Positions 5,565-39,554 of a stretch of DNA of 64,000 nt are shown here, piece after piece. A program made the position numbers and the translations under genes. Origin of the DNA: an uncultured Acidobacteriota bacterium. Lineage in GTDB: Bacteria > Acidobacteriota > UBA6911. The stretch covers positions 320,001 to 384,000 of the forward strand of contig CAWEJX010000004.1 in the NCBI GenBank assembly GCA_963809485.1, read 5' to 3'. The notes beneath the pieces were generated by a model. The model did not search any database, was not told where the DNA came from, and saw only the letters and a program-made list of their open reading frames with translations. How positions within the stretch are numbered: position 1 is the first letter of the stretch; every line of letters begins with the position of its first letter.

Positions 5565-7310
5565 TTGAAAAAAGAGATACGGTTGGCGACTTTGATTCTA
5601 ATAGTGGCTGCCCTATTTTCATCCGCATGTTCTTCGGGGAAGATGACGGTGGGGAAGATGACGGTATTGAATCCATCAGCGGCCAATAAAATGGTGGACC
5701 GGGTGCCGCTTTCGCCCCGCCTTGATGCATTGGAAGGGAAAACCATATTCCTGGTGGATATCGGTTGGGGTGGCCCCCAGGCAGCGCCCAGTGTTTACGA
5801 AGAAATGAAGGCCTGGCTTGCCCAAAACAAGCCCAGTGTGAAAGTGGAGATTCGGAAAATCAAAGGCTCCTACATGGAGGACCAGCCCGAGCTATGGAAG
5901 GAGATTTCCGAAAAAGGTCAGGCGGTAATGATTGGAATATCCGGCTGAGACGGCTGCACGTCGGCCGTGAGCCGTTACTGCAAAACTCTGGAACAGAAAT
6001 TTAACATTCCGACCGTGGGTGGAGCAGCATCCAACATCGTGAAATATGCCCTGGGATACGACTTTGAATTTACCAACGGCATGCCCATCCGCTACATCTC
6101 CTTCCCTTTCCCGGTGGCCGGTCAGCCGCAATCGGTTCACCACCAATACGTTTTCGACGGCAAAGATGTCGTCAGCGGAAAACCGATGATGCAGGCATTT
6201 ATCGATGCGTTGACTCTTCCTCTGACGGAAAAAGAGAAACATAAGGGAGCGGCTCCTGAGTCCGAACCCGCGCCTCGACTTCTTGGACCGGATACCGAGG
6301 ACAATTTGCAGCGCCTTTTCAAGGACCGCGACTGGACTGACTATAATCCGATCATCCTTCCTACCGAGGCAAGGGTAGCCGAGATGCTGAAAGGCACCTC
6401 TCATAAACCGGAAGAAGTCATTAAGACCGTGAACTGGCCCGGAGGCAATCGGGACCTTACCGTGGAAAAAGCCGCTATCTGCGCCGTAATGGCCGGCGCC
6501 AAAAAGGAATACCTGCCGGTTATCCTGGCTCTGGCAAAATCGGTACCGTTCGGCAACTCCACATCCTCCATGGCCAACATGATCCTGGTCAATGGCCCCA
6601 TACGGAAGCAGATCGGCATGAATTCCGGCGCCAATGTCATGGGGCCCCATAATGAGGCTAATTCGGTTATCGGCAGGACCTTCACGCTGATGTCGAAAAC
6701 CGTAGGAGGCCTGCATAGTGAAAAGACCACCTGGAGCACTTTGGGAAGCACCATGCAGTACAACAATGTGTGTATTGCCGAAAACGAGGAGGCTTTGCCC
6801 GAAGGCTGGGAGCCTTTTCATGTGCAAATGGGATTCAAGCCGGAAGACAGCGTTATAAACGTCGCCACCGGATGGACGTATATTTCCAGCGTGGGCGAAG
6901 CACAACGGAACTATCCGCCCCACATGTTGATGCGCGATTACATGAAGGCTCTTTCCGGAATGGGGTCGAGGGCCACCGTCATCATGGACCCCACGGTTGC
7001 AAGACTCCTCAAGGAAGGCCAGGGCTTTCAGACAAAGGATCAGCTGAGCCAGTGGTTTTCGGATAATGTTGAAAAACCTCTCGCCAGTTACCTGGGCAAC
7101 GGTGTGCTCTCGGGAACTCTTACCAATTACGGCGCCCAGGGAATGGAACCCTATGCAACATGGGCGAAATATCCGCTGGATAAAATGATTAAGCCGTTCC
7201 ACCAGGCTTCGGGCATCAAGATCCTTGTAGCCGGTGGGGGAATCCAGACAACCTGGTTTGTGACGGATTTCATGCTGGGCCGGGGTACGCTCATCGACGA
7301 ATGGCGCTAG
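5565..7310 (+). CDS. Predicted selenoprotein (581 aa, Sec128): lipoprotein-like signal, UGSC-family domain (G-U-D-G-C-T) and large uncharacterised C-terminal domain
   Basis: ORFs 5565-5948 and 5967-7310 are in frame, separated only by TGA 5946-5948; read-through gives UxxC; LSPRLDALEGKTI...IPTV matches UGSC family pattern; hairpin follows the TGA; GGAGG RBS before TTG start. Confidence 0.85.
5950..5975 (+). promoter_or_regulatory. Candidate SECIS hairpin
   Basis: ACGGCU-G-CACG-[UCGGC]-CGUG-AGCCGU stem-loop just 3' of the in-frame UGA. Confidence 0.55.
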
Positions 7311-13750: not shown

Positions 13751-13840
13751 GTTCCCTATCCCCCGCTTCGCGGCAATTTTACACAATGAATGCTTCTGCG
13801 CACATTATTATACTGTCAATTCCAAACAACGGAAGCATAG

Positions 13841-16231: not shown

Positions 16232-16528
16232 ATCAGGCTCTTTTCTTTGCCGACAGACGGCGTATTGATCCGCGGCTCTTAGGATTCCGGCATATTCCAA
16301 ATCAACCGGCGCGACGCATGAAATGCGGAGACATCGTCGATAACGGGAAACGCAGAGACCGCAGGCCAAGCCATGCGCGCGGCCTATTGTACTTCACCAC
16401 AGGGCCTTCAATCCGAAAAAATGGCGCTGCCCGATTTGTCTTGCATAAGCCCCGGTAAACCATGGATAAAGTATGTGCCGGAAGCAAAGAATCTCGTTAC
16501 GATGATCCTTGCGAGGGGGGCCTGATCC

Positions 16529-20911: not shown

Positions 20912-21418
20912 TTACTGCATCTTTTCCCAGATGAGCGTCGCGACGATCTTCTTGCCGTCGCCCGAGATTGGGCCCGGGTCTGTCGAATAAATTAGTCTGC
21001 CGCCTTCCTTTCGGACATTCCGGACTGTAGTCATACCCGTCCACGACCCGTTCCATGAAATGTCTACATGATGCTCAACTTTTTTGCCGTCAAATTTATA
21101 GGTTCCGCCATAGGCGAGCATGGAGCGGAACAGGGCCGCCTGCTGCTCGGGCGTCGCTTTTTCGATGGCTTCAGGCCTCGGCCGGTCATCCCCCGTAACA
21201 AGCACAAGCATACGACCGTCTTTGCCATACATGATGTATCCTGATGGGTGTTTTCCATAAGGGTAGGACACCTCGCCGGTGCCCAGAACCTCCCGCGAAT
21301 CGCTAACGAGCTTGTATGTGCCGGAAATATCATCCTCCGTCGCAGACACTGCAATCATCGCAAGCACGATTGACAACGTTACTGCCAATGCAGCCCAGAG
21401 GAATCTTTTCTGAACCAT
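20912..21418 (-). CDS. Secreted lipocalin-like domain protein
   Basis: Signal peptide; GTYKLVS, PSGYIMYGKDGRM, AYGGTY, HHVDISW, LIWEK pattern. Confidence 0.75.
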   Translation of the reverse strand: MVQKRFLWAALAVTLSIVLAMIAVSATEDDISGTYKLVSDSREVLGTGEVSYPYGKHPSGYIMYGKDGRMLVLVTGDDRPRPEAIEKATPEQQAALFRSMLAYGGTYKFDGKKVEHHVDISWNGSWTGMTTVRNVRKEGGRLIYSTDPGPISGDGKKIVATLIWEKMQ

Positions 21419-21820
21419 TTTTCTACCCTCCCTTTGTTTGAATGGATAGCAGCCCGCTTTGGAGTATTTAAGGACCTTTATCGCAGGGATTCAGGCGGGA
21501 AAAGGGGCACGAACGTCAGCGCCATCCCTGCGGAGCCGGAGGCTTGACTGAATGCCGCAATTATTTCTTGTGCTCGAAATATAAATGCATATTATGGGAT
21601 CATAATATTTCCAAACGCATGAGGCGATTTATCGCCTGGTTCCAGGGCATTTGTTGAGATGGATGCTTTTGACAAAGTTCGCGGGCGAGCGCCAATTCTC
21701 CGCAAAGGTCGGGAAGAGGGCTTAAGGCCACAAATTTCTTTGAAGCTCATAAAGAAGGAATTGATGAAGGAGAAATGCGGGTTGCCGGATGCTTATCGAC
21801 GCTCTCGAAAGGAGATTCCG

Positions 21821-23668
21821 ATGAAGAGGCTTTTCGAAATAATTCTGACAATGTTGGCTGTGATGGGATTGACGCTGGTTTTTGCCGCACCTCCTCAAAA
21901 GGCAGGCAAAGCTTCACCTGCGAAACAGGCTGGTGGAACCAAAGAGCCGGTGTACCAGTTCCTGAACCCGAAGGGACTTCCGGGGCCGATCAAGGTACAG
22001 GGACTGGCACCCCGTCTTGACACGATCAAGGGCAAGACGATCTACGTTGTTGCCTGCGAAGCCGGTCCGCAGACCGGGCCGTATTTGTATAACTATTTGA
22101 AGAAGCAATACCCGGATACGAATTGGGTTCACATACAGCACAATGGCATGGGCCCTACCGATCCGAAAATCGAAGGGGACATGCTGCAAAAGGCCGACGG
22201 GCTGATAGGTGGGCAATCGTGGTGAGGGGCCGCCACCAGTGTTCAGTCTGAATACAATACAAAGGTAGAGAAAGCCGGAATCCCCACCGTCAGATTTGGT
22301 TTTGCCGACCAGAAGAAATATTTCGAGCGAACTGCCCGGCTCAATAATGTGCCCCAAATGCGATGGGTAAGCATCCCACGCACGGGCCCGCCGGAACAGC
22401 GCATATATCCCATTGCGCCGGCTCTCATTGAAGCCCTGACCAAACCTCTGACCAAAGAGGAGATGTATGTGGGCACGTACACGCCGGAAATGCCGCCGAG
22501 GTATATCTTCAAGGGCACCTATGATGAAGCCATTGAATTTTTCAATGCAACCGAGCATGTGGATTCAGCGGATGCCGATATCAGCATTTACAGCGACGGC
22601 TCCCCAATCATACCGCCAACCGAAGAGAAGGTGGCGAAGATGCTCACCGGCACCAGCCTCAAGCCCGATACTGTCGTAACGGATGCAAAAGGAAATCCCG
22701 TTCGATTTTCCAGGTACGAGACGGTCACGGTGGAAAAGGTGGCCATTATCGGCGCGATGGCCGGCTGCAAGCCGGAATACATGCCCGTCCTGCTCGGGAT
22801 AGCTGAACTGGGCGGCGCCAGCACCAATTGCCCCGGCACCAGCAGTTCCGAGGGCACGCTGTATGTTGTCGACGGTCCCGTTGCCAAGGAGGTGGGTATT
22901 GGAGCCAGGCACGAATTCCTGGACTGGGGGAACCGGGCGAATGTGAGCCTTGCCAAAGCAGCCCGGCTCATGACGATCAATTTTGGCGGCTGCGTTGCGG
23001 GCATCGTCCGCACGGATGCCGGCAATCCGATATCTTCAGTCATTGCTGAGGATAGAGATGGCTTGCCTCCAGGCTGGGAAACCGTTGGAGAGGATTTTGG
23101 TTTCAAGAAAAATGACAGTGTTCTTGTTAAACTCGGAACGCGCGGTTTTGGGGTCAACGAGTTTGCCCCGGGCGCGTCCCGAAGGCTCCAGGACGGCATC
23201 GGAAGCTTAGCGGATGACCTGGGCGTGCTGGGAAAACCCGGGCCGCATAACATTCTTGCCTGGCTCGTTCCCCGCATCGCTCCTTTATACATAAACTTGG
23301 GGCACGTCTTCGTCATGGTGCCCAATCTGGCCAGGCCGGTCGGACAGATATACCCGACCAAGGCCGCTGTCTATGAATGGCTGTTCAACGATTTCAAGGC
23401 CACCATCCGCGACTATCAGCATCACGGCTGGTGGGAATTTAATACAGGGAACGGCGATCAGAAGGAAGGTACCAATAAAGAGGGTCTTTCGTTTAATCAG
23501 CTGATTGAAAAGTATGGTCTTGATTACAAAATCCCCGTCTTTGGCTCGAGAAGCCCCAAAGAAAACCTCATCATCGTGGGCGGCGGCGGAGCGGATGAAT
23601 CGATCTGGCATTTCGGCCTCCAATTTGGCGGTCGAGGCCGGGCTGTCACCATAGATAGATGGCGGTAA
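21821..23668 (+). CDS. Predicted secreted selenoprotein, copy 1 (615 aa, Sec135; W-U-G-A-A-T)
   Basis: In-frame TGA 22223-22225 between two same-frame ORFs; read-through ...GQSW-U-GAATSVQSEYNTKVEKAGIPTVRFGF has no other stop; AAGGAG RBS; signal peptide ending VFA-A. Confidence 0.88.
22239..22255 (+). promoter_or_regulatory. SECIS-like hairpin, copy 1
   Basis: GUGUUCA-GUC-UGAAUAC; loop GU at +21/+22 after UGA. Confidence 0.75.
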
Positions 23669-23975
23669 AGCAAGGCCAAATTAGCCTCAGTCATCGAATT
23701 GCGGCCGTCGAGCCGCAACCAAATTGAGCCTGCGGGTAGGTCCCGTCCGGCGGACGGGACCTACTTGGACGGATCTGGAGCAGCCGTCCGCACATTCGAA
23801 AAAGCAGGGGAGTGGAGGATCCGACCCCTTTCTCCTATCACGTCATTTACCGCCATTACAGGGCTTTGCCTTTTATTGCTTCCCTGCCCGGGGTTTCTCT
23901 GCGTCGCGTTTTCAGCGCTTCGTGCGCACCCTTTGAAGTCCGACTCACCTGATAAGAGCCTTGCGCAATTTTCCC

Positions 23976-24004
23976 TTGTGTGAAGATAACATTGCCCCTA
24001 TGAT
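23976..24004 (+). promoter_or_regulatory. Candidate sigma70 promoter of copy 2
   Basis: TTGTGT-N17-TATGAT; copy 1 has an equivalent TTGTGC-N16-TATTAT at 21568-21595. Confidence 0.4.
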
Positions 24005-24191
24005 AAGCTCATTTCCTAAACAAATAGGACGCTTCACCGTCTGTTCCACAAAATTGCTTGGTTTGGCCCTTTTGACGAAGTTCACGAGCCAACGCGAAGA
24101 AACTTCTTTGAAGTTCAAGAAGAATGAAGGGATTAAAGGGCGATACGCATTGCCGCACATATAAACTACCTGTTTCGAAAGGAGATTTCTT

Positions 24192-26030
24192 ATGAAGAGG
24201 CTTTTCGAAATTGTTTCGATGGCATTGGTTGCGGTGTGGTTGACCTTCGCTTTTGCCGCACCTCCTCAAAAAGCAGGCAAAGCTTCACCTGCGAAACAGG
24301 CAGGTGAAACTAAAGAGCCGGTGTACCAGTTCCTCAATCCAAAGGGAATTCCGGGTCCGATAAAGGTACAAGGACTGGCACCACGTCTTGACACGATCAA
24401 GGGCAAGACGATTTACGTTGTTGCCTGCGAAGCCGGCCCGCAGACCGGGCCGTATTTGTATAACTACTTGAAGGAGCACTATCCGGACACGAATTGGGTT
24501 CACATACAGCACAATGGCATGGGCCCGACCGATCCAAAAACCGAAGGGGAAATGCTGCAAAAGGCCCAGGGTTTGATCGGAGGGCAATCGTGGTGAGGGG
24601 CCGCTACAAGTGTTCAGTCTGAATACAATACAAATGTAGAGAAGGCCGGAATCCCCACCGTGAGATTTGGTTTTGCAGACCAGAAGAAATACTTTGAGCG
24701 AACTGCTCGGCTCAATAATGTACCCAAATTGCGCTGGGTAGACATTCCACGCACGGGCACACCGGAAACGAGGCTATATCCGATTGTTCCGGCTCTGATT
24801 GAAGCCTTGACCAAGCCTCTGACCCAAGAGGAGATGTATGTGGGCACGTACACGCCGGATCCACCGGAAAGGTATATCTTCAAGGGCACCTATGATGAAG
24901 CCATAGAATTCTTCAACTCGACCGAGCATGTGGATTCGGCCGATGCCGATATCGGCATCTACAACGACGGCTCCCCCATAATCCCGCCGACCGAGGAGAA
25001 GGTGGCGAAGATGCTCGCCGGCACCAGCCTCAAGCCGGATACGGTAGTAAAGGATGCAAAAGGGAATCCGGTGAGATTTTCCAGATACGAAACCGTTACG
25101 GTGGAAAAGGTGGCCATTATCGGCGTCATGGCCGGCTGCAAGCCGGAATACATGCCGATCCTGCTGGCAATGGCCGAGCAAGGCGGAGGCAGCACGAATT
25201 GCCCGGGAACCAGCAGTTCTCCAGGAGTTTTGTATGTCGTCGACGGTCCCATTGCCAAGGAGATAGGCGTTGGTGCCAAACACGAATTCCTGGACTGGGG
25301 GAACCGGGCGAATGTGAGCCTTGCCAAAGCAGCACGGCTCATGACGATAAACTATGGCGGCTGCATTGCGGGTATCGTCCGCACGGATGCCGGCAATCCA
25401 TTGTTTTCAGTCATTGCCGAGGATAGAGACGGCTTGCCTCCGGGCTGGGAAACCGTTGCCGAAGATTTTGGCTTCAAGAAAAATGATAGTATTCTAGCCA
25501 AACTCGGAACGCGTGGCTTTGGGGTCAACGAGTTTGCCCCGGGCGCGTCGCGCAGGCTCCAGGACGGCATCGGAAGCCTGGCGGATGATCTTGGCGTGCT
25601 GGGGAAATCCGGGCCGCATAACATACTTTCGTGGCTCGTTCCCCGCATCGCTCCTCTATATATAAACACGGCTCATATCTTCGTCATGGTGCCCAATCTC
25701 GCCAAGCCGGTCGGACAGATGTACCCGACCAAGGCCGCCGTGTACGATTGGCTGTTCGGCAACTTCAAAGCAACCATCCGCGATTATCAGCATCACGGCT
25801 GGTGGGAATTTCAGACAGGAATCGGCAGCCAGGTCGAGGGAACCAACAAAGAGGGTCTGACGTTTAATCAGCTGGCTCAAAAGTACGGTAGCGATTACCA
25901 GATCCCCAGGTTCGGATCGAGAAGCCCTAAAGAAAACCTCATCATAGTAGGCGGCGGCGGAGCGGATGAGTGCATCTGGCACTTCGCAGGCGGCCGAGGC
26001 CCCGCGGTCAACCTGGATAAATATCGCTAG
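24192..26030 (+). CDS. Predicted secreted selenoprotein, copy 2 (612 aa, Sec135)
   Basis: In-frame TGA 24594-24596 at the same aligned position; flanking ORFs share a frame; same signal peptide and domains. Confidence 0.88.
24610..24626 (+). promoter_or_regulatory. SECIS-like hairpin, copy 2
   Basis: Identical GTGTTCAGTCTGAATAC. Confidence 0.75.
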
Positions 26031-26195
26031 AGCCTGGTTTCATTGAGCCATTATTCATCGGAAACAGGAAGGGGGTAAATTGGTTGCCCCCTTCTCCTCA
26101 TTGGTGTGATAAGTAAATTCATAGACTTTCACAAACCGAACCGCAGATTCCATGGGTATCAGGGTAATTTGCCTATTTCGAAAGGGAGATTTCGT

Positions 26196-28040
26196 ATGAA
26201 GAGGCTTTTCGAAATTGCTGCGATGGTATTGATTGCGGTGTGGTTGACCTTCGCTTTTGCCGCTCCGCCTCAAAAAGCTGGCAAAGCTTCACCTGCGATA
26301 AAGGCAGGTGAAACTCAAGAACCGGTGTACCAGTTCCTCAATCCGAAGGGAATTCCAGGCCCGATCAAGGTGCAGGGACTCGCGCCGCGTCTTGACACGA
26401 TCAAGGGCAAGACGATCTACGTTGTTGCATGCGAAGCCGGTCCGCAGACCGGGCCGTATTTGTATAGCTATTTGAAGAAGCAATACCCGGATACGAATTG
26501 GATTCACATTCAGCACAATGGCATGGGCCCGACCGATCCGAAAACCGAGGGCGAAATGCTGAAAAAAGCCCAGGGGTTGATAGGAGGGCAATCGTGGTGA
26601 GGGGCCGCCACCAGTGTTCAGTCTGAATACAATACAAATGTAGAGAAGGCCGGAATCCCCACCGTCAGATTCGGTTTTGCAGACCAGCAAAAATATTTTG
26701 AGCGAACTGCCCGGCTCAACAATGTGCCCAAATTGCGCTGGGTAAGCATCCCACGCACCGGCCCGCCGGAAACGAGGCTCTATCCCATTGTTCCGGCTCT
26801 GATCGAAGCCTTGACCAAACCTCTGACCAAAGATGAGATGTATGTGGGCACCTATACGCCCGACATGCCGCAAAGGTATGTCTTCAAAGGCACCTATGAC
26901 GAAGCCATTGAATTCTTCAACGCGAGCGAGCATGTAGATGTAGCCGATGCCGAAGTCAGCATTTACACCGACGGATCACCCATCATCCCTCCGACCGAGG
27001 AGAAGGTGGCGAAGATGCTCACCGGCACCAGCCTCAAGCCCAATACTGTCGTAACGGATGCAAAAGGGAATCCGGTGCGGTTTTCCAGATACGAAACCGT
27101 TACGGTGGAAAAGGTGGCCATTATCGGCGTTATGGCCGGCTGCAAACCGGAGTACATGCCGGTGCTGCTGGCAATAGCCGAGCAGGGCGGCGGCAGCACC
27201 AACTGCCCCGGCACCAGCAGTTCTCACGGCACCGTGTATGTTGTCGACGGTCCCATTGCCAAAGAGGTGGGTATCGGCGCCAGGCACGAATTCCTGGACT
27301 GGGGGAACCGGGCGAATGTGAGCCTTGCCAAAGCCGCCCGGCTCATGACAATCAACTTCGGCGGCTGCATTGCAGGCATCGTGCGCACCGATGCCGGCAA
27401 CCCGCTGTTTTCGGTCATTGCAGAGGATAGAGAGGGCTTGCCTCCAGGCTGGGAAACCGTTGGCGAGGATTTTGGTTTCCAGAGAAAAGATAGCGTTCTT
27501 GTAAAACTTGGAACGCGTGGTTTCGGTGTCAACGAGTTTGCCCCGGGCGCATCCCGCAGGCTCCAGGACGGTATTGGAAGTCTGGCGGATGACCTGGGCG
27601 TGGTGGGGAAACCCGGGCCGCATAACATACTTGCGTGGCTCGCTCCCCGCCTTGCTCCTTTGTATATAAACACGGGGCATGTTTTCATCATGGTGCCCAA
27701 TTTGGCCAAACCGGTCGGCCAGTTATACCCGACCAAGAATGCCGTCTACGAATGGCTGTTCAACAATTTCAAGGCCACCATCCGCGACTATCAACATCAT
27801 GGCTGGTGGGAATTTTTCACGGGGAATGGCGAACAGATAGAAGGAACCAACAAAGAGGGTCTCTCATTCAATCAAGTGGCCAAAAAGTATGGTCTTGACT
27901 ACAAGGTTCCCGTCTTCGGTTCAAGAAGCCCTAAGGAAAACCTAATCATAGTAGGTGGTGGAGGAGCGGATGAGTGCATCTGGCACATCCATCTCCTCGG
28001 TGGCCGAGGCTTCGCCGTCAACATAGACAGATGGCGGTAG
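26196..28040 (+). CDS. Predicted secreted selenoprotein, copy 3 (614 aa, Sec135)
   Basis: In-frame TGA 26598-26600 at the same aligned position; flanking ORFs share a frame. Confidence 0.88.
26614..26630 (+). promoter_or_regulatory. SECIS-like hairpin, copy 3
   Basis: Identical GTGTTCAGTCTGAATAC. Confidence 0.75.
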
Positions 28041-28059
28041 CCGTTCATCTGGGAAAGAA

Positions 28060-28453
28060 CCTGGCAGTCCTCGAGATCAGCGGAGGGATTTGGGAAGCAT
28101 GCACCCGCACCAAGGAGGAACCGGGCTGGAGACCTGTCCTCATGCCCGAAGCCCGGACGGGGATTGCAACCGTGGATCAGGAGGCCTGCTTCCTGCCGGG
28201 CGCGAAGGCAATCAAGGACAAGACGAAGGCAACGGTCATTTTGGTAGGAGGGTTCAGGTCGTTCAGCAAAATTGAAGAGATGTTGCATACAAAGGCAGCA
28301 GATTTTGTAGCGCTTTGCCGGCCCCTCATCCGTCAGCCTGATCTTCCCAACTTGTGGCGTTCCGGAAAGGGACCGGACAAGGCGGAATGCATTTCCTGCA
28401 ATACCTGCCTTCCGATAGGCACCGCAGCTCCGGGCTGCAAGATGGATGTGTAG
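28060..28453 (+). pseudogene. 3' remnant of NADH:flavin oxidoreductase (Old Yellow Enzyme family)
   Basis: LEISGG...VILVGGFRS...ADFVALCRPLIRQPDL...CISCNTC; N-terminal part missing. Confidence 0.8.
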
Positions 28454-28628: not shown

Positions 28629-28847
28629 TCACCCATTCACCAATAGGGAGAAAACGAGGCCGCCCAGCCAAAAGGACAGGACAAAGGCGATTGCCAGCGT
28701 AAGCATGGTTCCAAGCACCAAAAGCGTTGCTTTGGGCTTCCGCGGCCTGATTAAAAAAGCGGCAAGGATGGTGAGGAAAAGCGAGCCTGCAACGATCGCA
28801 AAGACAATCCATCCCAACCATTCGATGTGGCCGACCTGGTTCATCAT
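28629..28847 (-). CDS. Small 2-TM membrane protein, last gene of the Mo-enzyme operon
   Basis: ATGA overlap with the NrfD-like stop; two hydrophobic helices. Confidence 0.7.
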   Translation of the reverse strand: MMNQVGHIEWLGWIVFAIVAGSLFLTILAAFLIRPRKPKATLLVLGTMLTLAIAFVLSFWLGGLVFSLLVNG

Positions 28848-30139
28848 TCCGGCTGCTCTTCCGCTTTCTCCATCTCGGTGAGAGGGATTATGGGAAAGAA
28901 TTTTGTGAACAGCATAAACAGCAGCGCCACCATGACGAATGTGCCCATCACCAGGGACCACTCCACCCACGTTGGGCTGTAGCTTCCCGGCGGATAGGGG
29001 AGGTAGGGCCGAGTCAGGGAAGGCACCACGATGAGGAACCGCGTAATCCAAAGGGTAACCACAACAAGGGCAGACGCAAAAACCGTAGTCCCTATTTTGA
29101 AGACGCGGGGAAAGACCGTGTTGAGGAAAAATATCGTAAACGCGATAAGCAACGCCGCAACCTGCACCCAATAGAGCCAGGCAAACTCAAGGTTCGACCA
29201 TGCCATCGAAACCTTAAGCTCCGGCACCGGGCCCGCATACTTTACCGTCACGAACTCCGACAGCATAAAATAGATGTAAAGAATGGACACCCAGGAAAGG
29301 AATTTCCCCATGCCCCGGAATATCCGGGGCTTTATATACTCCTGCCAACCGAATATCTGCCGACTGGCGGCGGCCATAACGACAACAGCGGCGACTCCGG
29401 ATAAAACCGCACCCACTACGTAATATGGGCCCATGATGGCGCCATACCAGCCCGGCCTCCCCACCATCAGGCCAAATACCCAGGCAACATTGGTGTGGAC
29501 CATGACCATGATCGGGAAATTGAAAACGCTTGCCCACCAGACGATCTTTTCAATTCGCTCCCGTTCGCCGGGTTCATAGGCCGGCAGCAACCGCTTATAC
29601 AGCCATTGCAGCCTGGGATGGCTATTCGCCAGCCTGGCCAGGTCCTCCCGCATCTCCAGGTATAGATAGGTAACGGAAAATATCAGGTAGGTCGCAATGG
29701 CAGTGATGTCCCAGACGAGGGGCGACGATGCCAGACGCTGAGGATAGTAAAGCAGCAGGTAAAAAATCCTGTCCGGCCGGCCGATGTCGAAAAGCAGAGA
29801 GAATCCCGCCATCAGCAGGCTGAAGACGGTTACCAGCTCGGCTATCCTGGCCAGCGGTATATAGTCTCTGAGTTTGAGCAGACGTATCGCTGAGGCGATG
29901 GCTATACCGGCGTGCGTAATCCCGATAAAGAAGATGAAGTTGGTCATATACACTCCCCAGGGCGAACCGCCGGGGATGTCTCTCATGCCCGTCACCTCCA
30001 GCCCGGTTCTAAGCTGGGTAATCCAGGCGAAAGCGAACCAGGCAAGGCCAAGGAGCAGAAGCCCCAGAAAAAGGTAGTACTTCCGGGTGGTATGGAGCAG
30101 AGGATACCAGAGCTTCTCCTCAAATGTTGCAGCGCGCAT
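28844..30139 (-). CDS. NrfD/PsrC-family membrane anchor
   Basis: PWGVYMTNFIFFIGI, DIGRPDR, SPLVWD; about 10 TM helices. Confidence 0.9.
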   Translation of the reverse strand: MRAATFEEKLWYPLLHTTRKYYLFLGLLLLGLAWFAFAWITQLRTGLEVTGMRDIPGGSPWGVYMTNFIFFIGITHAGIAIASAIRLLKLRDYIPLARIAELVTVFSLLMAGFSLLFDIGRPDRIFYLLLYYPQRLASSPLVWDITAIATYLIFSVTYLYLEMREDLARLANSHPRLQWLYKRLLPAYEPGERERIEKIVWWASVFNFPIMVMVHTNVAWVFGLMVGRPGWYGAIMGPYYVVGAVLSGVAAVVVMAAASRQIFGWQEYIKPRIFRGMGKFLSWVSILYIYFMLSEFVTVKYAGPVPELKVSMAWSNLEFAWLYWVQVAALLIAFTIFFLNTVFPRVFKIGTTVFASALVVVTLWITRFLIVVPSLTRPYLPYPPGSYSPTWVEWSLVMGTFVMVALLFMLFTKFFPIIPLTEMEKAEEQPE

Positions 30140-30146
30140 GCCTGAT

Positions 30147-30890
30147 TCACCTTTTCAGCTGGTAGGGTATCTCCTCGATCTGCCTTGCTTTTTCCGTGGT
30201 CGGCATTTTGCCCAAATAGTAAACCTTCGGCTCCGTGCCCAGTTCTTCCAGCAGGCGATGGGAGGGCTTTTGTGCCAGCAGTCTGGAGATTTCGCTGTTC
30301 GGATCTGCAAGATCACCGAAGTGCAGCGCCTGGGTAGGGCAGTTGGCCACGCAGGCGGGATTCATTCCCTTCTCCACCTTATGGACGCAGAAGGTGCACT
30401 TCTCTGTGACGCCGATGCGCTGTCCTCCCCCGGAGATATGCCTCTTATCCCTGCCGCAGGCTTCGCTCAGGTCGGGATTTTTGTAAGGAGGCACGGCGCC
30501 ACCGGTGGCCGGGAGAAGCTCTTTGTCATGCCAGTCCAGATAGTAGTTGTCAGCCGGCTTTTTCCAGTTGAACTGATTAACTCCATAAGGACAGGCCACC
30601 TCGCAGTAACGGCAACCTATGCAGCGCTCAAAGTCAGTCGATACCAGGCCATCCTCGCGCATATATCGAGCCCCTACCGGGCAGACCTTCACGCATGGGG
30701 CATTGTGGCAATGCATACAGGGCCGAGGCATGAACGCGATCCGGACATTGGGATATTCGCCTTCCTCCAGCCGGAAGACATACATCCAGAAGATGCCCCG
30801 GGGCGTGTTGTTTTCAACCTTGCAGGCGAGCATGCAGGCCCGGCAGCCCGTACATCTATCCAGATCGATCACCATTCCGTATCTAGCCAT
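30147..30890 (-). CDS. 4x[4Fe-4S] electron-transfer subunit (NrfC/PsrB/DmsB-like)
   Basis: CTGCRACMLAC, CMHCHNAPCVKVCP, CIGCRYCEVACP, KCTFC...CVANCP. Confidence 0.92.
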   Translation of the reverse strand: MARYGMVIDLDRCTGCRACMLACKVENNTPRGIFWMYVFRLEEGEYPNVRIAFMPRPCMHCHNAPCVKVCPVGARYMREDGLVSTDFERCIGCRYCEVACPYGVNQFNWKKPADNYYLDWHDKELLPATGGAVPPYKNPDLSEACGRDKRHISGGGQRIGVTEKCTFCVHKVEKGMNPACVANCPTQALHFGDLADPNSEISRLLAQKPSHRLLEELGTEPKVYYLGKMPTTEKARQIEEIPYQLKR

Positions 30891-33471
30891 TTGGCGTTCC
30901 GCTCTTATACACCCGCACCTTCACGTGATAGGACTGATCCTGCGTATTTGCCACGTAGCCCTCTCCCGAGAAGTAGAGCGTGTTGGGGGTGGGTCCTTGT
31001 CCGCTTGCCCAAGGGTGGCGGGCCACTTCCCCAAAGTGATGCGGCATGGCCACGACATCCGGCCGGATACCCTCGGTGAACGCAACCTTCACCTCAACCC
31101 GGCGAGTCTCTCCGGTGACGGCATTATGGGACTCTACCCATACCCGGTCATTATCCTGGATTTGACGCCGGCGGGCGGTCCCGGGATTTATGCACAGCCG
31201 TTGCTCCGGTGCCAGCTCCGCAAGCAAGGGAATGTGCGATGAACGCGATTCCTTGAATTCCATCATCTTGTAGGTCACAAGGTAAAGGTCATATTCGGGA
31301 GGGGAATTTTCCATGCTGAGTGACCGCCAGACAGGAAAGGCGGTGTAGTCGCGCCAATAGACTTCTTCGACGCCCCTGGCTTGCATCTCCTCCCGATAGC
31401 GCAACAGGGACTCCCCATAGAGCCGGTGGCGGAGTCCTTCAAAAGGCGGCGTCTGGGCAGAGCCGTAGAATCTCTTCGCCGGGATTGGGCCGTGAACCTT
31501 TACTCCCTTCTTCTCAAAATACCCTATTCCCTCCTCAATCCCCCGCGACCTGGCCCAGCGGTCCAGGATCTCTCTGGCCGTGGGCTTGCGATTCAAATCC
31601 AGACTGTACGACTCCCACAAAGCCAGCGCCTTGTTGATCGCATCAAGGTAGCCTCCTTCACCGAACAGGAAGCCTGCCTTATCGCACAGGTCCAGGTAGA
31701 TTTCAATTTCTCCCCGGGACTGGAATAGGGGTTCCATGGGAGGCAGGCGCAGGGTGGTGGCGTCGGTATACTGGTCCGAAACAGACAACGGTCCTTCGAA
31801 CTTTTCTATGGTGGCTGCCGGCAGAACCACATCGGCGAAGTAATCTGCGGTCTTGCTCAGCCAGGGATCGATGGTAATGATGAACTTGAACTTCTTATAG
31901 GACTCCCAGACAGCTTTTTGATCGGGAAACGTCAGCGCTCCATTGTTCATGTGGATAATGAGCACCTCAGGGACGTAGTCCACGCCATACTTTTGAGGGT
32001 TTAGCATAACCCTGGCCACCATCGAGGAGTTGCCGCTGCCGATGGGGAAATACTTGCTGCCCTCAAGTCTGATGTCGGAAGGGGGATCCTTGATCTTCAC
32101 TTCATCCAGAAGCCAGTAGTTCTCATCTACGCCCCAGGGGCCTGGAGCGCCCAGGCGCTGCCCGCCGACCGCCTCCACCGCGCCCAGGAGCATCATGACC
32201 ATAACCATGGCCCTGACTGCCTGGAAGCCCAGCTCCTGTTGGCCTGTCCGGTAGGCCATGATGGCGACTGGACGGTACGGAAGCTCGATGCCGTCCATGA
32301 TGATCCTGCTGCCTATCATGGCGTTTTCGCCCAGATCGCGGCCCAATTTGCGGATAGCGTCGGCCGACAGGCCGCATATATCAGCGGCGACTTCAGGTGT
32401 ATAGCGGGCTATGTGTTCCTGAAAGAGCTGGAAGGCGGGCTTAACCCGGGTCCCGCCCACAGTGAACTCCCCTTCCAGGGCCGGCACTGTCGCTTCGGCG
32501 TCGTATGGCTTTGCTGAGCCGGTGACCTGGTCCCAAACCTGCTCCTTATCTTTCACCCTCAGGAAATAGCCGTCTTCTTTGATCAGGAAAGGGGCGTTGG
32601 TGTATTTCTTGAGGTAGTCGCGGTCTATGGTGCCCTGCGCAATCAGGACGTGGCACAATGCGAGGGCAAGAGCCAGGTCGGTGCCTGGCCGGATGGGCAG
32701 CCACTCATCGGCGAAGGTGCCCGAGCCTCTGAGCCGAGGGTCAATCGCGACTATCTTCATTCCCCGGTCCCTGGCGTCAAGCATTTGCCGGGGCCACGTA
32801 ATCGAGCACAGCCAATTGCCCCCGCCGCCGGTGATATTCCAGCCCCAGGCCATTAGGTACCTGGTATGTCGGAAATCCGCTCCAAGCGCCCCTTGAGAAC
32901 CGACGGTATAACTGACAGCCTTCTGGGCGGCAAAAGAGCATTGCGCGCCCACACATAACATGGTTGCCCCTGAAGCCGACACGAAAGCTTCCCTGTACAG
33001 GGCTGGAGCCTTGTCCCGGCCGTGTTGCCAGACCAGAAGTCTCTTGTCCCTGGCCCGCACCTCCTTTATTTTTTCTCCTGCCAGGGTCAAGGCTTCATCC
33101 CACGATACCTGCCGCCACTGTCCCGGGACTCCCTTCTCATTGGTGCGCACAAGCGGCGCCTTCACGCGGTTGGGATCGTAGACCGCCATTATCTGGGCCA
33201 CGCCCTTGGGGCAGAGAGTGCCCCGGTTTCTTGGATGGTCCGGATGCCCTTCAAACTTGACCACCCGGCCGTCAATACGCCGCGCCAGCATGCCGCAATC
33301 CTGCTTGCCGATCCAGCAGGTGGTGGGGATCCAATCTTCGGCCAGGGCCGGCGCCGCCTCGGTACTTTGGGGTGTCCAGATCTCCATGCCCCGGAAAAGG
33401 ATCCGGCTCGCGGAAAGAGTGCCCACCGTTGCAGCGGCGCCCTTTATGAAGGTTTTCCGGCTGATTTTCAT
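30883..33471 (-). CDS. Molybdopterin (bis-MGD) oxidoreductase catalytic subunit with Tat-like signal
   Basis: SRKTFIK signal; CWIGKQDC...LCPKG; DEWLPIRPGTD; DVVLPAA; C-terminal dinucleotide-binding domain. Confidence 0.9.
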   Translation of the reverse strand: MKISRKTFIKGAAATVGTLSASRILFRGMEIWTPQSTEAAPALAEDWIPTTCWIGKQDCGMLARRIDGRVVKFEGHPDHPRNRGTLCPKGVAQIMAVYDPNRVKAPLVRTNEKGVPGQWRQVSWDEALTLAGEKIKEVRARDKRLLVWQHGRDKAPALYREAFVSASGATMLCVGAQCSFAAQKAVSYTVGSQGALGADFRHTRYLMAWGWNITGGGGNWLCSITWPRQMLDARDRGMKIVAIDPRLRGSGTFADEWLPIRPGTDLALALALCHVLIAQGTIDRDYLKKYTNAPFLIKEDGYFLRVKDKEQVWDQVTGSAKPYDAEATVPALEGEFTVGGTRVKPAFQLFQEHIARYTPEVAADICGLSADAIRKLGRDLGENAMIGSRIIMDGIELPYRPVAIMAYRTGQQELGFQAVRAMVMVMMLLGAVEAVGGQRLGAPGPWGVDENYWLLDEVKIKDPPSDIRLEGSKYFPIGSGNSSMVARVMLNPQKYGVDYVPEVLIIHMNNGALTFPDQKAVWESYKKFKFIITIDPWLSKTADYFADVVLPAATIEKFEGPLSVSDQYTDATTLRLPPMEPLFQSRGEIEIYLDLCDKAGFLFGEGGYLDAINKALALWESYSLDLNRKPTAREILDRWARSRGIEEGIGYFEKKGVKVHGPIPAKRFYGSAQTPPFEGLRHRLYGESLLRYREEMQARGVEEVYWRDYTAFPVWRSLSMENSPPEYDLYLVTYKMMEFKESRSSHIPLLAELAPEQRLCINPGTARRRQIQDNDRVWVESHNAVTGETRRVEVKVAFTEGIRPDVVAMPHHFGEVARHPWASGQGPTPNTLYFSGEGYVANTQDQSYHVKVRVYKSGTPNG

Positions 33472-34754: not shown

Positions 34755-34890
34755 ACAGCTGCAGACGTTTTTATTTTATAATAGCGAGCTAAAGACTATC
34801 TTAGGATCTCGGATAAGCATTTGAAGCCACAGATCGACCGGTCGCTGTCGTCTCGACGAAGAGGTGATGTGGTTCCAGAGAGGAAGAACT

Positions 34891-37102
34891 ATGCAGGATA
34901 AGGAGAAAATCCCAGGTTGCAGGCTTGGCCGAAGGAACTTTTTAAAGGCCACCGGCGTACTGGGCGCAGCCGCAGCCGGTGCGAGCCTCAAGCCCGGGCC
35001 GCCGAACGCCCGTGCAGTGGATGCGAAGGCCACAGGCGGTGAGGAGATCCGGCGCAGTATTTGTGACATGTGCTGCCTCGGGCGCTGCGGTATTGAAGTC
35101 TTTGTTAAAGACGGCCGGGCTACGCGTGTGCAACCGTTCAAGGATTATCCCAATGGCCCGATTTGCGTCAAAGGGAACTCGATTCTGTTTCAATTGTATC
35201 ATCCGGACCGGCTCAAATATCCCATGAAGCGCACCAGGCCAAAGGGCAGTTCCAGCGCAGGCTGGCAGCGCATCACCTGGGACGAAGCTTTAGGGACTAT
35301 TGCCGGGAAAGTTGCAAAGATCAAACAAAAGTATGGCGCCGAGAAGGTGCTCTTCTATGCGGGCGATCCCAAAGATCCCGTGCGCCCGAATCTGCAACGC
35401 CTGGCGCTTAAATTCGGCTCTCCTAATTACGGTACCGAGAGTTCCGTGTGCCATCGCGCTATCATCGTGGCTCAAAGCCTGAACGGAGCCGCCAGCACCG
35501 GATTAACACCCGCCACGAGGGCAGTGATCATCTGGGCGAACAATTCGGCATGGGCGCAGCCGCGCAGCATGGGAGAAATTTTCAGGGCCAAAGAGAGGGG
35601 AGTCAAAATCATCGATGTCGATCCCAGGCTGGCGCCCACAACGAAGCTGGCGGACATTCACCTGCAACCGCGCCCCGGCACCGACGGCGCGCTGGCATTG
35701 GGCATGTCCCGCGTGATAATCCACGAAAACCTTTATGACAAGGGATTCGTTCTCAACTGGACCGAGGGCTTCCAGGAATTCAACAAGTACGTGCAGCAGT
35801 TTACGCCGGAGAAGGTGGAGAAGATCACCGGCGTTCCGGCAGGCAAGCTGGTCGACGCCGCACGGCTGTATGCCTCGAATAAGCCCACGGGCTGGATAAC
35901 CAGCGCTTCGCCGACTGTTCACCATTGGAACGGATGCCAGAATCACCGAGCCATTTCGGCGATGACGGCCCTTACCGGCGCTGTCCCTGTGCCTGGACTT
36001 GAGCCGTCGGCTCCAGCTCTCTCTTTCCGCGACATCACCGAATCGCGCACGCTGCTTCCACCGCTTCGGAGCAAGCGTGCGGATCTCAAAGATTTCCCCG
36101 TATGGGAGCAGTTCGAGCCGGAGATTCAGATCAACCGTCTGCCCGAATATGTGAAGGACGGCATCCTCCGGGCAGGCTTGTTCGTTGGCTGCAATTACCG
36201 CATGTGGCCGCAGGACCAATTGTATGCCAAAGCCATCAGCTGACATGGAGTTTACGGCGGGTGCCGATTTCTGGCTGACTCCAACCATGGAATTGATGGA
36301 TATCGTCCTTCCAGCGGCAACCTCGCTTGAGAGGCTGGGACCGATCAACATTGCCGGGCGAACCGTTTTCCTGCCTCAGCCAGTTGTGTCGCCTGTCGGC
36401 GAAGCTCGGGGCGACATGGAATGGATGTGGGATCTGGCGAAGCACCTGGGTATGGGAGCCGAGTTCTGGAATGGGAGCGTGATGGATACCGTGGACTGGC
36501 AGCTCGAGCCGCTGGGCCTTAAGGCGGCCGATCTGATCAAAGCGCCGAAGGGCATTGTGATTCCGCCGGCACAAAAGAAGCCAGCCGGGTCTGGAGAGCC
36601 GTCCGCACAGAAGCTGGCGGGCAAGCCCGGCTTCAAGACGCCTTCGGGCAAATTTGAATTCAAATCCTCCATTCTGGAAAAGGCCGGATTCGATGGGTTG
36701 CCCACCTATCGGGAACCGCCGGAAGGTCCAGTCGCGGCACCTCAGACGGCGGAGAAATTTCCCCTCATCTTCAACACGGGATCGCGGGAGCCGATGTTCA
36801 CGCACTCGCGGCATCGGAACAATCCGCGCCTGCGGGAGCTGCAGCCCAATCCCAAACTGGACATTAATCCAAAAGATGCACAGGCGCGCGGGATCAAACA
36901 AGGTGAGGACGTCGTTGTCGAAACTCCGTTGGGACAGATCACGGTCAAGGCAAATATCACAAATCTGGCCCAACCGGGTGTGGTCCACGTATTCCACGGC
37001 TGGCCCCAGGCCGATGTAAACACAATTCTGCCACGGACCTTTGATCCGATAACGGGCTTTCCGGCTTTCAAGTCCCAGCTCTGCCAGGTGAGAAAAGCTT
37101 GA
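34891..37102 (+). CDS. Tat-exported molybdopterin oxidoreductase catalytic subunit, split by a +1 frameshift at ~36238
   Basis: GRRNFLK; CDMCCLGRC...CVKG; ESSVCH; PRPGTD; removing one A gives YAKAIADMEF...DIVLPAA. Confidence 0.85.
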
Positions 37103-37112
37103 GGAGAACGGC

Positions 37113-37673
37113 ATGCAAAAAGGTTTCTATTTAGATACGGAACGGTGTATGGGTTGCCACACCTGCGAAGCTGCGTGCAAGAACTGGAACGGCGTGGAAC
37201 CGAAGGTAACCGACAAGCCTGGCACCCAGGGGCCGAAATGGCGGCGCGTTACCAATATTGAGTCCGGTGCATATCCGAACGCGCAGATCATCAGCGTCTC
37301 CCTCGCTTGTATGCACTGCGGGGAACCCGCCTGCGTGGCTGTGTGCCCGGCCGGCGCGATCAGCAAACGGCCTGAGGATGGCATCGTGGTGGTAGACCAG
37401 AACAAGTGCATCGGCTGCCACTACTGCTTCTTCGCCTGCCCGTTTGGAGTGCCGCAGTATGGTTCTAGTGGAACCATGCAGAAGTGCAACTACTGCCTGG
37501 ACCGCACAGAGAAGGGTCAGGAGCCTGCCTGCGTCGACTCCTGCCCCGCTCAGGCCATCAAGGCAGGAACGATGGAGGAACTGGCGAAGCATACCCAGGA
37601 GAGGTTGGCCAGGAAACTGGCCGGCAGTACCCAGCCTTCGCTGTTGATTTCCAGGGAAGGACTCAGCAAGTAA
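37113..37673 (+). CDS. DmsB-like 4x[4Fe-4S] subunit
   Basis: CMGCHTCEAAC, CMHCGEPACVAVCP, CIGCHYCFFACP, KCNYC...CVDSCP. Confidence 0.92.
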   Translation: MQKGFYLDTERCMGCHTCEAACKNWNGVEPKVTDKPGTQGPKWRRVTNIESGAYPNAQIISVSLACMHCGEPACVAVCPAGAISKRPEDGIVVVDQNKCIGCHYCFFACPFGVPQYGSSGTMQKCNYCLDRTEKGQEPACVDSCPAQAIKAGTMEELAKHTQERLARKLAGSTQPSLLISREGLSK

Positions 37674-38713: not shown

Positions 38714-38879
38714 ATGATGGCGGATTTCGTTCCATGCTTCATGGCAGCAGCGCAAAGAAATTTCTTATATCTGTTCTGTGAAACTGCTCGATTTCGGCTT
38801 GGCAAAGTTTAGGAAAGCGGGCGAATCGTCTGTGGCGGAAGTCACCGGGAGCCCAAGGTGCCAAAGAAAGGAGAGCACT

Positions 38880-39554
38880 ATGCCCAAAAAAGAAGCAAGC
38901 GAAACTGAAGGAGAAGAGCCCCAGGAATCATTCAGCACCATATCGCGTAGGAAGTTCCTAAAAGACGCCGGACTGGTCGCCGGCGGGGCCTCAATGGCGG
39001 GTGCAGCTCCGATCGCGGCCGGAGTTTCGGGACAGACGGGCGCAAAAGCTTCCGCTGTCTCACCGGAGACTGCGGCAACCGGCTCGCATAAAATCAGGCT
39101 GACCGTGAACGGATTGGAATATGACGTTCTGGTCGATCCTGAAGAATCGCTGCGCGACTGCCTGCGGGAGAGGCTCGGATTCCTGTCCATTAAGGACATG
39201 TGTCTGGGCTATGGCGCCTGCGGGTCCTGTACCGTGATCATGGACGGCAGGCCAATTCTATCCTGTCTTGCACTCGCCATCGAGTGCGACGGCAAAAAGA
39301 TACAAACAGCCGAAGGTGTCGCCCTGTCCAAACACCCGCTGATCGAAACCTACGTAATGAACCACTGCATGCAGTGCGGATACTGTACACCAGGCTTTAT
39401 CTGTACCTCCAAAGCCCTGCTGGACAGGAATCCGGATCCGACGGAGGCCGATATACGAGAGGCGCTCGCGGGCAATCTATGCCGCTGCGCAACTTACATT
39501 CGGCATATCCCGGCTGTGCAACAGGCAGCCCGCGCATTGAAGGAGGGTATATAG
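38880..39554 (+). CDS. 2x[2Fe-2S] small subunit of xanthine dehydrogenase family with Tat signal
   Basis: SRRKFLK; [10 protein letters not shown]...C; QCGYCTPG; GNLCRC. Confidence 0.9.

Follow-up and report, generated by a model that had tools for sequence, protein, structure and literature searches.

Three tandem genes for putative exported selenoproteins with a lone selenocysteine in an uncultured Acidobacteriota bacterium

The window analysed in this work, 64,000 nucleotides (nt) from an uncultured Acidobacteriota bacterium (GenBank assembly GCA_963809485.1, contig CAWEJX010000004.1, positions 320,001 to 384,000), holds three adjacent genes, here called A, B and C (Table 1), which are almost certainly real selenoprotein genes. 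Each is interrupted by a single in-frame TGA, and their most likely products are selenoproteins of ~65 kDa, because a conserved hairpin resembling a selenocysteine insertion sequence (SECIS) follows the TGA and the genome encodes SelA, SelB, SelD and a selenocysteine tRNA (tRNA-Sec). As far as sequence comparison goes, the three belong to a widespread and uncharacterised family, in which a UGSC-type N-terminal domain is followed by a C-terminal domain of ~390 amino acids (aa). What appears genuinely peculiar to them is their place in a conserved clade that keeps selenocysteine (Sec, U) without a neighbouring cysteine, together with scores below the UGSC cut-offs. Taken jointly, the reading of A, B and C as real exported selenoproteins, in a lone-selenol clade of a two-domain UGSC-type family and with the mechanism and the molybdenum (Mo) partner proposed below, seems to us quite probable.

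The in-frame UGA codon

An earlier note, made from the letters of this DNA, had described three paralogs of ~614 aa, each split by a single TGA at codon 135, and the translations agree with it. Under translation table 11 each of the three plus-strand loci is an open reading frame (ORF) of 134-188 aa running to the TGA, and then, in the same frame, another of 438-456 aa; with the TGA read as U, single open frames of 615, 612 and 614 aa result for A, B and C. This one TGA is the sole interruption, no other stop or frameshift being found, and its context is common to the three genes (GGQSW-U-GAATSVQSEYNT, giving the motif W-U-G-A-A-T). The copies are 86.9-87.9% identical in pairwise protein comparison, and the ratio of their nonsynonymous to synonymous divergence (dN/dS, Nei-Gojobori) is 0.11-0.23 before the TGA, 0.08-0.22 in the first 60 codons 3′ of it, where 10-13 differences are synonymous, and 0.11-0.16 beyond those 60 codons. 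Since dS is 0.28-0.54 and dN/dS is low, A, B and C seem to be old duplicates, all of them maintained; they are intact tandem paralogs under purifying selection, and the further claim of the note, that the stretch after the TGA is coding and has no ribosome-binding site (RBS) of its own, stands.

Could the TGA nevertheless be a true stop, with each locus making an exported N-terminal protein of 134 aa and a separately started one of 440-456 aa? Gene callers do split the homologs in this way, most database relatives in a word-indexed protein search being 456-490-aa ORFs called after the TGA, and the TGA is bridged by no read or peptide here. On the other hand, whilst an RBS of the GAAAGGAGAT type sits 5-8 nt 5′ of each ATG of A, B and C, none was found at the earliest in-frame starts 3′ of the TGA, which lie 22-45 codons on and are not conserved as starts, and at the ATG at codon 80 a purine run directly abuts the start, with zero spacer. 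The codons that separate the TGA from the first possible start (22-45 of them) show equal purifying selection and align with a continuous domain of full-length Cys homologs, and a stop would cut the predicted alpha/beta domain mid-way. Together with the specificity of the SECIS-like hairpins for TGA members and the Sec machinery of the genome, both described below, this leaves a true stop with a very small chance of being correct. The idea of an alternative genetic code was rejected, as TGA terminates 13 of the 37 ORFs of at least 250 aa in the window.

Equally, the three loci might be pseudogenes or an assembly artefact, with a nonsense mutation copied by duplication. The assembly is a draft resembling a metagenome-assembled genome (MAG), with 7.3% contamination, and the neighbouring Mo-enzyme genes look frameshifted. 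That independent assemblies, at 70-87% identity, share the TGA and its codon position is hard to reconcile with this explanation, as are the amount of synonymous divergence between the copies, with dN/dS everywhere below 0.25, and frames that are otherwise undamaged, and we regard it as next to negligible.

The TGA, together with the GAAT that follows it in translation, is kept in every ortholog seen, in 13 other assemblies: it is present in L012 (87% identity) and L013 (76%), both MAGs of uncultured Acidobacteriota, in 10 metagenome loci (eight at 70-87% identity and two at 39-40%) and, at 78% identity, in the same-genus genome G001. When homologs are aligned at codon 135, as the note had advised, Cys takes the place of the UGA in relatives, with 32 CxxC and five lone-Cys forms among 153 sequences. 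The search for Sec machinery, which the note had likewise advised, found all of it above curated cut-offs in this genome of 6.04 Mb (21 contigs, 95.7% complete): SelA at 565 bits (cut-off 268), SelB at 391 (cut-off 242), SelD at 346 (cut-off 125) and, on contig C19, a tRNA-Sec with anticodon TCA. The selD gene itself holds one in-frame TGA and is a candidate Sec gene (C8:80982-81905). Another candidate is the gene of a Mo-bisPGD enzyme with one TGA (C20:1207473-1208783), and a third an AOR-type frame with two TGA at C8:304903-305502, unless that one is broken.

The consensus of bacterial SECIS elements is a stem-loop a short way 3′ of the UGA whose apical loop contains G/U. The hairpins of A, B and C each have a 7-bp stem, from 13 nt past the UGA, and a GUC loop, from 21 nt past the U; their bases are invariant across the three copies whilst nearby third-codon and synonymous positions vary, and in orthologs a G-U pair is replaced by A-U. 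For the wider comparison, the criteria for a SECIS-like hairpin were a perfect stem of at least 5 bp and a loop of 3-7 nt that begins 17-31 nt from the U and has G as its first base or contains GU. Among dereplicated members from the own genome and the fetched loci, such hairpins are found in 64 of 84 with TGA and in only 5 of 50 without it, or, counted per sequence cluster, in 28/35 against 5/23 (Fisher p = 2.6e-5). The minimum free energy of nucleotides +4 to +50 averages -13.0 kcal/mol in the 84 TGA members versus -10.2 in the 50 others, and the mean folding z is -1.01 versus -0.19 at an equal GC of 0.56 (Mann-Whitney p = 2e-6). The commonest loops among members are GUC, AGUU, GGUC, AGUUG and GUU. 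It is this family-wide comparison of predicted hairpins between TGA and non-TGA members that we take as decisive for the SECIS association, and with the machinery, the conserved TGA and the Cys-bearing relatives it upholds the view of the note that the three are UGA-recoded selenoproteins.

As to expression, promoter and terminator scans of the locus gave sites no more numerous than in shuffles, and a search of sequencing runs for words of the genes found no run with half of them. One metatranscriptome library has three short contigs matching gene A, none of which covers the TGA; one of them differs from gene A positions 22730-22929 at 2 sites in 200 nt, and the other two have 18-19 differences. 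This is a weak hint that gene A, or a nearly identical gene, is transcribed somewhere.

A lone-selenocysteine clade in a two-domain family

Gene A finds, by tblastn against its own genome, ~60 further frames at 25-32% identity. Frames of at least 450 aa number 53, of which 39 have exactly one TGA and 14 none, and there are ~10 family fragments besides; they are spread over the genome, e.g., at C12:46-205 kb, C4:67-423 kb and C20:437-1347 kb. The Pfam model of UGSC (PF24696) passes its cut-off at 57 places, nearly all of them at the N-terminal end of frames of ~600 aa; TGA is present in 41 of 58 listed PF24696 rows of the genome, from which A, B and C are absent. Outside the genome, an exhaustive HMMER search returned 2372 representative proteins at E <= 0.001, with 1029 at 1e-10 or better. 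The fusion of a UGSC domain to a large uncharacterised domain, which the note had thought unusual, is hence the normal architecture of the family: the UGSC domain usually heads a two-domain protein of ~600 aa.

Names are of little help in this family. In the word-indexed search all matches are called ‘hypothetical protein’, save one labelled ‘ThiS’, and none carries a Pfam domain; Pfam on ten long relatives gave only surface-type modules (Cu_amine_oxidN1, CBM96, disaggregatase repeats), and an ESM Atlas search gave unnamed clusters only, one of them with UGSC on 32% of its members. GRDB (PF07355) had no match in A, B and C at E <= 1, its sole match in the genome being elsewhere, at C20:1216512. 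In full-length relatives without Sec the site reads CGSC, CGTC, CGAC or CSTC (CxxC types), CGGM, CGAS or CGNA (single-Cys types), and WSTAS, SSSTT or SGAA (non-redox types).

The literature, in the passages that concern it, describes the ‘UGSC-containing protein’ as small, with a UxxC motif and no known function (PMC2398784, PMC13188914, PMC9312934), and ranks it with the prokaryotic selenoproteins most often predicted from aquatic metagenomes (PMC2398784, PMC13188914). With it A, B and C share a homologous N-terminal alpha/beta domain, the position of Sec followed by an E..G.P.V motif, and a strong preference for Sec over Cys. Homology around the Sec site is seen in full-length alignments (E ~1e-46 to 1e-20) to paralogs that score 27-105 bits on PF24696, and A, B and C nest in the family tree. 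They differ from it in their motif, U-G-A-A where the UGSC family has U/C-x-x-C, in their sub-cut-off scores and predicted signal peptide, and in a length of ~615 aa, with the extra ~390-aa domain, as opposed to ~150 aa for the NCBIfam equivalog model. A ‘UGSC/Unknown_1 fusion’ is mentioned by Zhang & Gladyshev 2008 (PMC2398784); it resembles A, B and C, by its description, in joining a UGSC-type domain to a domain of unknown function with a conserved Cys, and the passage on it makes no mention of a form lacking the Cys at +3, of export or of large paralog expansions.

The comparison is more direct with the UxxC paralogs of the same genome, such as that at 5565-7310 of the window, whose Sec (in ISG-U-DGC) does align with the TGA of the array, as the note had it. 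Like A, B and C, these paralogs have two domains, carry their TGA at the aligned codon with a SECIS-like hairpin after it, and mostly begin with a signal-like N-terminus; at 25-32% identity to A, B and C, they differ in keeping the Cys at +3 and in passing the Pfam cut-off. In the array the resolving residue at +3 is Ala, again as the note had stated, the motif being U-G-A-A in all three.

To place this change, 153 full-length members were put in one tree (FastTree, LG+gamma; identical sequences merged): 49 own paralogs (34 U-x-x-C, three U-G-A-A and 12 without Sec), 73 locus-derived and 31 database sequences. Tree and motif counts used plus-strand high-scoring segment pairs spanning query residues 125-420, own paralogs of at least 500 aa and the 31 full-length database proteins; of 584 metagenome loci the best 80 were used, fetched with patterns derived from the subfamily, and motif-type proportions are hence not population estimates. 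A single clade (support 0.98) holds all 30 sequences having Sec without the +3 Cys, three of the five lone-Cys sequences and one with neither, and since it spans several motif types (WUGAAT, WUHGA[IV], [YF]UGG[AKS] and FU[AG]NAA), the tree has the +3 Cys of U/CxxC lost once, with Sec, and rarely Cys, kept since then, down to ~28% identity. Sec was thus long kept in one lineage after the loss of the neighbouring Cys, and the selenol would therefore act without the classical U-x-x-C pair. Only two conserved columns, D67 and A328, are specific to this clade.

Loss of the resolving residue of a two-residue redox motif, with the reactive one kept, is known from 1-Cys peroxiredoxins and monothiol glutaredoxins. 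This is brought in as an analogy only, and no relation of sequence or fold to A, B and C is claimed.

Structure prediction agrees with a two-domain protein. The full-length model of gene A (36-sequence alignment; mean predicted local distance difference test, pLDDT, 76.8; predicted template modelling score, pTM, 0.79) has a helix at residues 2-21, disorder at 22-37 (pLDDT < 50) and an N-terminal domain in the order beta-alpha-beta-alpha-beta-alpha-beta-alpha-beta, in which Sec135 is placed past strand 127-131, at the N-terminus of helix 136-151. Foldseek with the whole model against the Protein Data Bank (PDB) gave weak flavodoxin-like, B12-binding-like and binding-protein-like matches only (template modelling, TM, score <= 0.17), and a profile search of the PDB with the gene A protein gave weak matches of the N-terminal domain only (best E 0.009). 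A thioredoxin-like fold was suggested for UGSC in 2008 (PMC2398784); the model of the N-terminal domain, alternating beta and alpha and with flavodoxin- and binding-protein-like best matches, does not have a thioredoxin fold around the redox motif. The C-terminal domain alone is modelled with high scores (80 sequences; pLDDT 94.3, pTM 0.93), and Foldseek of it against the PDB gave no usable relative (best E 2.1, TM 0.13); searches with the proteins of A, B and C likewise found no Pfam or NCBIfam model for it, and the profile search with the gene A protein no PDB match. On the strength of the model it may be an unsolved fold. Residues conserved family-wide include D259-G260, P266-T267, E305 and M313-A314-G315, as well as P322, G352-P353, N374, E410 and W419.

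Export, the selenol and a possible molybdoenzyme partner

The N-termini of A, B and C read M-K-R, a hydrophobic core of ~18 residues and V/A-F-A before A-P, and are conserved in kind in the orthologs. Of the features of Sec-pathway signal peptides cleaved by signal peptidase I, a positively charged n-region, a hydrophobic core within 15-20 aa and small residues at -3 and -1 are visible, and lipobox and twin-arginine motif are absent; in gene A a low-complexity linker follows the predicted signal peptide. The proteins are likely exported, judging by these N-termini, which may also be uncleaved membrane anchors. By the heuristic used here the N-termini do look like the Sec-pathway signal peptides of the note, which are not unusual in the family, since a hydrophobicity screen flagged 40 of the 53 paralogs (~39, one of the windows lying inside the domain). 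Its label of ‘periplasmic selenoenzyme’ is one that we, too, infer from the genes. Two UxxC paralogs have twin-arginine-like N-termini in place of Sec-type signals (C12:202421-204229 and C4:293828-295591, one of which reads S-R-R-x-F-F-K), several others a lipobox-like Cys, and the lone-Sec clade members L021, L022 and L033 are lipoprotein-like; the family may use more than one export route.

The mechanism that we propose would begin with the Sec-type signal peptide sending A, B and C to the periplasm. There Sec135, at the start of a predicted helix, would serve as a lone selenol with redox or nucleophilic activity, forming a selenenyl-sulfide or an adduct of selenium (Se) with a substrate, and this adduct would be resolved by an external thiol or a distal Cys instead of a neighbouring one. 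Cys316, at the N-terminus of the predicted helix 318-332 and the only Cys conserved across the clade, would be the best candidate for such a distal partner. Finally, the proteins could act with a Mo-bisPGD/iron-sulfur (FeS) oxidoreductase of ortholog loci, exported by the twin-arginine (Tat) route, either as its redox partner or as a carrier of its substrate.

Four cysteines had been put forward in the note as possible partners of Sec. All of them (Cys79, Cys316, Cys337 and Cys391) are present in A, B and C, and only Cys316, in the motif MAGC, is conserved across the lone-Sec clade: the WUGAAT subgroup alone has Cys337, the same subgroup and five others have Cys391, and Cys79 is found in 9 of 11 WUGAAT-subgroup members. 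Among database relatives found without a pattern that includes Cys316, this Cys is present in 105 of the 109 that are at least 38% identical, in 58 of the 64 between 33 and 38% and in 55 of the 81 under 33%. Position 316 is Ala in 33 of 42 UxxC members, where A, B and C have Cys, and Cys is also found there in 30 of the 32 CxxC members and in 24 of the 43 that lack a redox residue.

The suggestion of a molybdoenzyme partner comes from gene order in the orthologs, after which a Tat-type Mo-bisPGD gene and an FeS gene usually come next. In L015, where there is a single U-G-A-A gene, these two lie directly 3′ of it and are read in its direction, and the same is seen in L017 and G001; in L013 the Mo gene follows the ortholog and the contig ends there. 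In the window, the orthologous pair lies 6.8 kb downstream of the array. This adjacency makes for a concrete candidate pairing. More specifically, the lone-Sec clade could be a new class of exported selenol partner proteins for periplasmic molybdoenzymes, in which Cys316 would resolve a covalent adduct Se-X, formed in a domain without solved fold, and X would come from the Mo enzyme as its substrate or product, be it a species of sulfur, selenium or arsenic, or else an organic electrophile. In this specific form the idea is unlikely to be right. If it were, the family, with 11-55 mostly Sec-containing and exported copies per genome in this genus, would be an unrecognised battery of extracytoplasmic selenoenzymes, and the selenoproteomes of these Acidobacteriota would be near the largest reported for bacteria.

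It is also conceivable that Sec135 is a ligand and not catalytic. In that case A, B and C would be exported proteins that bind or carry a metal, a metalloid or a sulfur/selenium species and exchange it with the neighbouring Mo enzyme. Single-Cys periplasmic sulfur carriers, for example, serve polysulfide reductase. The weak matches of the N-terminal domain are to alpha/beta domains of the periplasmic binding-protein, LacI and flavodoxin-like types. The family has multiplied in the manner of solute-binding families, and most members look exported and some look like lipoproteins. A Cys-form relative (L039) adjoins genes of a TRAP-type transporter, as judged by sequence, and the loss of the resolving Cys is compatible with a ligand role. 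Exported substrate-binding selenoproteins are, moreover, tabulated in a 2026 review (PMC13188914). Against all this, the ancestral motif is the classic redox U/CxxC at a helix N-terminus, no conserved cluster of His, Cys or Asp accompanies Sec (the clade-specific D67 and A328 being all there is), Sec is preferred over Cys by 30 to 3 in the clade, as in redox selenoproteins, and no transporter genes are conserved beside the WUGAAT genes. A ligand role is, in our judgement, rather improbable.

The reading of A, B and C as exported selenoproteins with a redox-active or nucleophilic selenol and a Mo partner has its own weak points, which should be set out together. Selenoprotein status is read here from gene sequences. 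Single hairpins are insignificant on their own (z of -0.5 to -1.05 for the 68 nt 3′ of each TGA), Rfam at E <= 10 gave no SECIS match here (two unrelated sub-threshold matches were returned), and RNAalifold found no consensus pairs in a gapless alignment of 28 sequences, a result that is uninformative because the register of the hairpins shifts by 1-2 nt from one subfamily to another. Running the UGSC models on the read-through products, as the note had proposed, gives a match at residues 89-186 that is weak and, for A, B and C, below both curated cut-offs: 19.1, 15.3 and 15.1 bits against 25 for Pfam PF24696, and 22.7, 22.4 and 23.1 against 125 for NCBIfam NF041046. The signal peptides were called by a Kyte-Doolittle hydrophobicity heuristic only, and the WUHGA group of the lone-Sec clade is without a signal peptide. 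Cys316 is found in 33 of 34 clade members, a figure biased by the pattern used to fetch the metagenome loci, which included this Cys, and the idea that, across the family, Cys316 is coupled to the presence of a redox residue at 135 was rejected (Fisher p = 0.26). As to the Mo partner, the Mo gene of the window is in two frames, with an apparent frameshift at ~36230-36324, and is split from the array by an operon; in L014 no Mo enzyme lies within its 1.1-kb flank; and bisPGD enzymes are within 10 kb of 3 of 41 family loci in the genome, against 2.1 expected, which is not significant.

That last figure belongs to a permutation test in which the 53 paralogs were merged into 41 loci and second gene pieces were dropped, leaving 34 of 37 XDH, 24 of 24 AOR and 16 of 22 bisPGD rows. 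For any Mo or tungsten (W) enzyme within 10 kb the count is 16 of 41 loci against 7.9 expected, 16 being reached in 2 of 2000 simulations; we do not lean on this excess, because family loci and Mo/W genes share the same islands. Clustering of the neighbours of 54 paralogs brought out no single conserved partner. The Mo gene at 34864-37102 may be a pseudogene or reflect an assembly error.

Expansion in the genus and surroundings of the array

UGSC-domain loci are present in all 12 same-genus genomes searched, with 11-45 each, against 55 here at the same threshold, whereas only two of eight other genomes of the class have them, as one small stand-alone copy each. The amplification that the note had found unusual is hence genus-wide, and its list of unusual traits mixes those of the family (fusion, export, amplification) with one real peculiarity, the lone Sec. 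U-G-A-A orthologs themselves were found, with the query used here, in two of the 12 genomes, as one copy in G001 and as two in tandem at the start of a contig in G006, and the closest relatives of A, B and C appear to be from Acidobacteriota. The largest bacterial selenoproteomes given in the 2026 review are of 57 and 63 genes (PMC13188914). With 39 intact Sec candidates of one family, this genome would come near those totals. The wider family, with its C-terminal domain without solved fold and its genus-wide expansion of exported Sec proteins, would be a more interesting lead than A, B and C alone.

Table 1. Features of the array, its surroundings and ortholog loci (positions in the window, or in the locus named)
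Feature	Position	Strand	Remarks
Distant paralog, canonical U-D-G-C	5565..7310	+	28.6% identity; TGA 5946-5948, ISG-U-DGC, U at residue 128
Shine-Dalgarno-like GAAAGGAGAT, gene A	21807..21816	+	5′ of ATG
Gene A, 615-aa read-through selenoprotein (most likely product)	21821..23668	+	stop TAA
Predicted Sec-type signal peptide, gene A	21821..21886	+	K/R n-region, ~18-aa hydrophobic core, V-F-A then A-P
N-terminal UGSC-like alpha/beta domain, gene A	21950..22495	+	residues ~44-225; weak UGSC matches, predicted beta-alpha pattern, Foldseek
TGA read as Sec135, gene A	22223..22225	+	read-through translation; N-terminus of predicted helix 136-151
SECIS-like hairpin, gene A	22239..22255	+	7-bp stem, GUC loop
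C-terminal ~390-aa domain, gene A	22496..23665	+	motifs DG.P..PPT, TVEK, MAGC(316)
RBS, gene B	24177-24186	+	5′ of ATG
Gene B, 612-aa read-through selenoprotein (most likely product)	24192..26030	+	stop TAG
TGA read as Sec135, gene B	24594..24596	+	read-through translation
SECIS-like hairpin, gene B	24610..24626	+	folding, comparison of copies
RBS, gene C	26180-26190	+	5′ of ATG
Gene C, 614-aa read-through selenoprotein (most likely product)	26196..28040	+	stop TAG
TGA read as Sec135, gene C	26598..26600	+	read-through translation
SECIS-like hairpin, gene C	26614..26630	+	folding, comparison of copies
Psr/Phs-like operon between array and second Mo enzyme	28844..33471	-	same arrangement in L012
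NrfD	28844-30139	-	Psr/Phs-like operon
4Fe-4S	30147-30890	-	Psr/Phs-like operon
Tat Mo-bisPGD subunit	30883-33471	-	Psr/Phs-like operon; best partial match PhsA, 225 bits vs cut-off 694
Mo-bisPGD oxidoreductase	34864..37102	+	74-82% identical to genes directly 3′ of orthologs in L013, L015, L017, G001
DmsB-like 4Fe-4S subunit, partner of 34864-37102 enzyme	37113..37673	+	66% identical to L015 counterpart
DUF1573/OS_HP2 genes	L013:3051-3740, L017:1981-2706, L020:2095-2790	-	absent as neighbour in window

In the three loci listed last in Table 1, the DUF1573/OS_HP2 (seleno)protein-family gene (78 bits, cut-off 100) is the near neighbour 5′ of the U-G-A-A ortholog and is read in the opposite direction, with an MFS transporter beyond it in L013 and L020. 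In the window, the array is preceded by a plus-strand ORF of 766 aa (18451-20751) with Druantia DruA-like (PF14236, 123 bits) and Tn5-type transposase DNA-binding and dimerisation domains, which adjoins a minus-strand lipocalin-like gene (20912-21418) upstream of the array. Overlapping the end of gene C is a plus-strand ORF of 159 aa (27974-28453) with no Pfam match at 1e-4, which may be a gene remnant; its C-terminal half, by eye, presumably resembles the end of a flavoprotein of the old-yellow-enzyme/dienoyl-CoA-reductase type. Further downstream, an XDH-type enzyme is encoded on the plus strand at 38778-41911, where its [2Fe-2S] subunit occupies 38778-39554 and its Mo-binding subunit appears as two overlapping ORFs (39555-40733 and 40667-41911), and is followed on the minus strand by a 1208-aa TonB-dependent-like outer-membrane protein (42016-45642). 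In the first part of the window, two sulfatase genes (12044-13786, minus strand; 16529-18160, plus strand) flank a minus-strand gene at 13841-16369 for a multihaem-cytochrome/TPR/HEAT protein.

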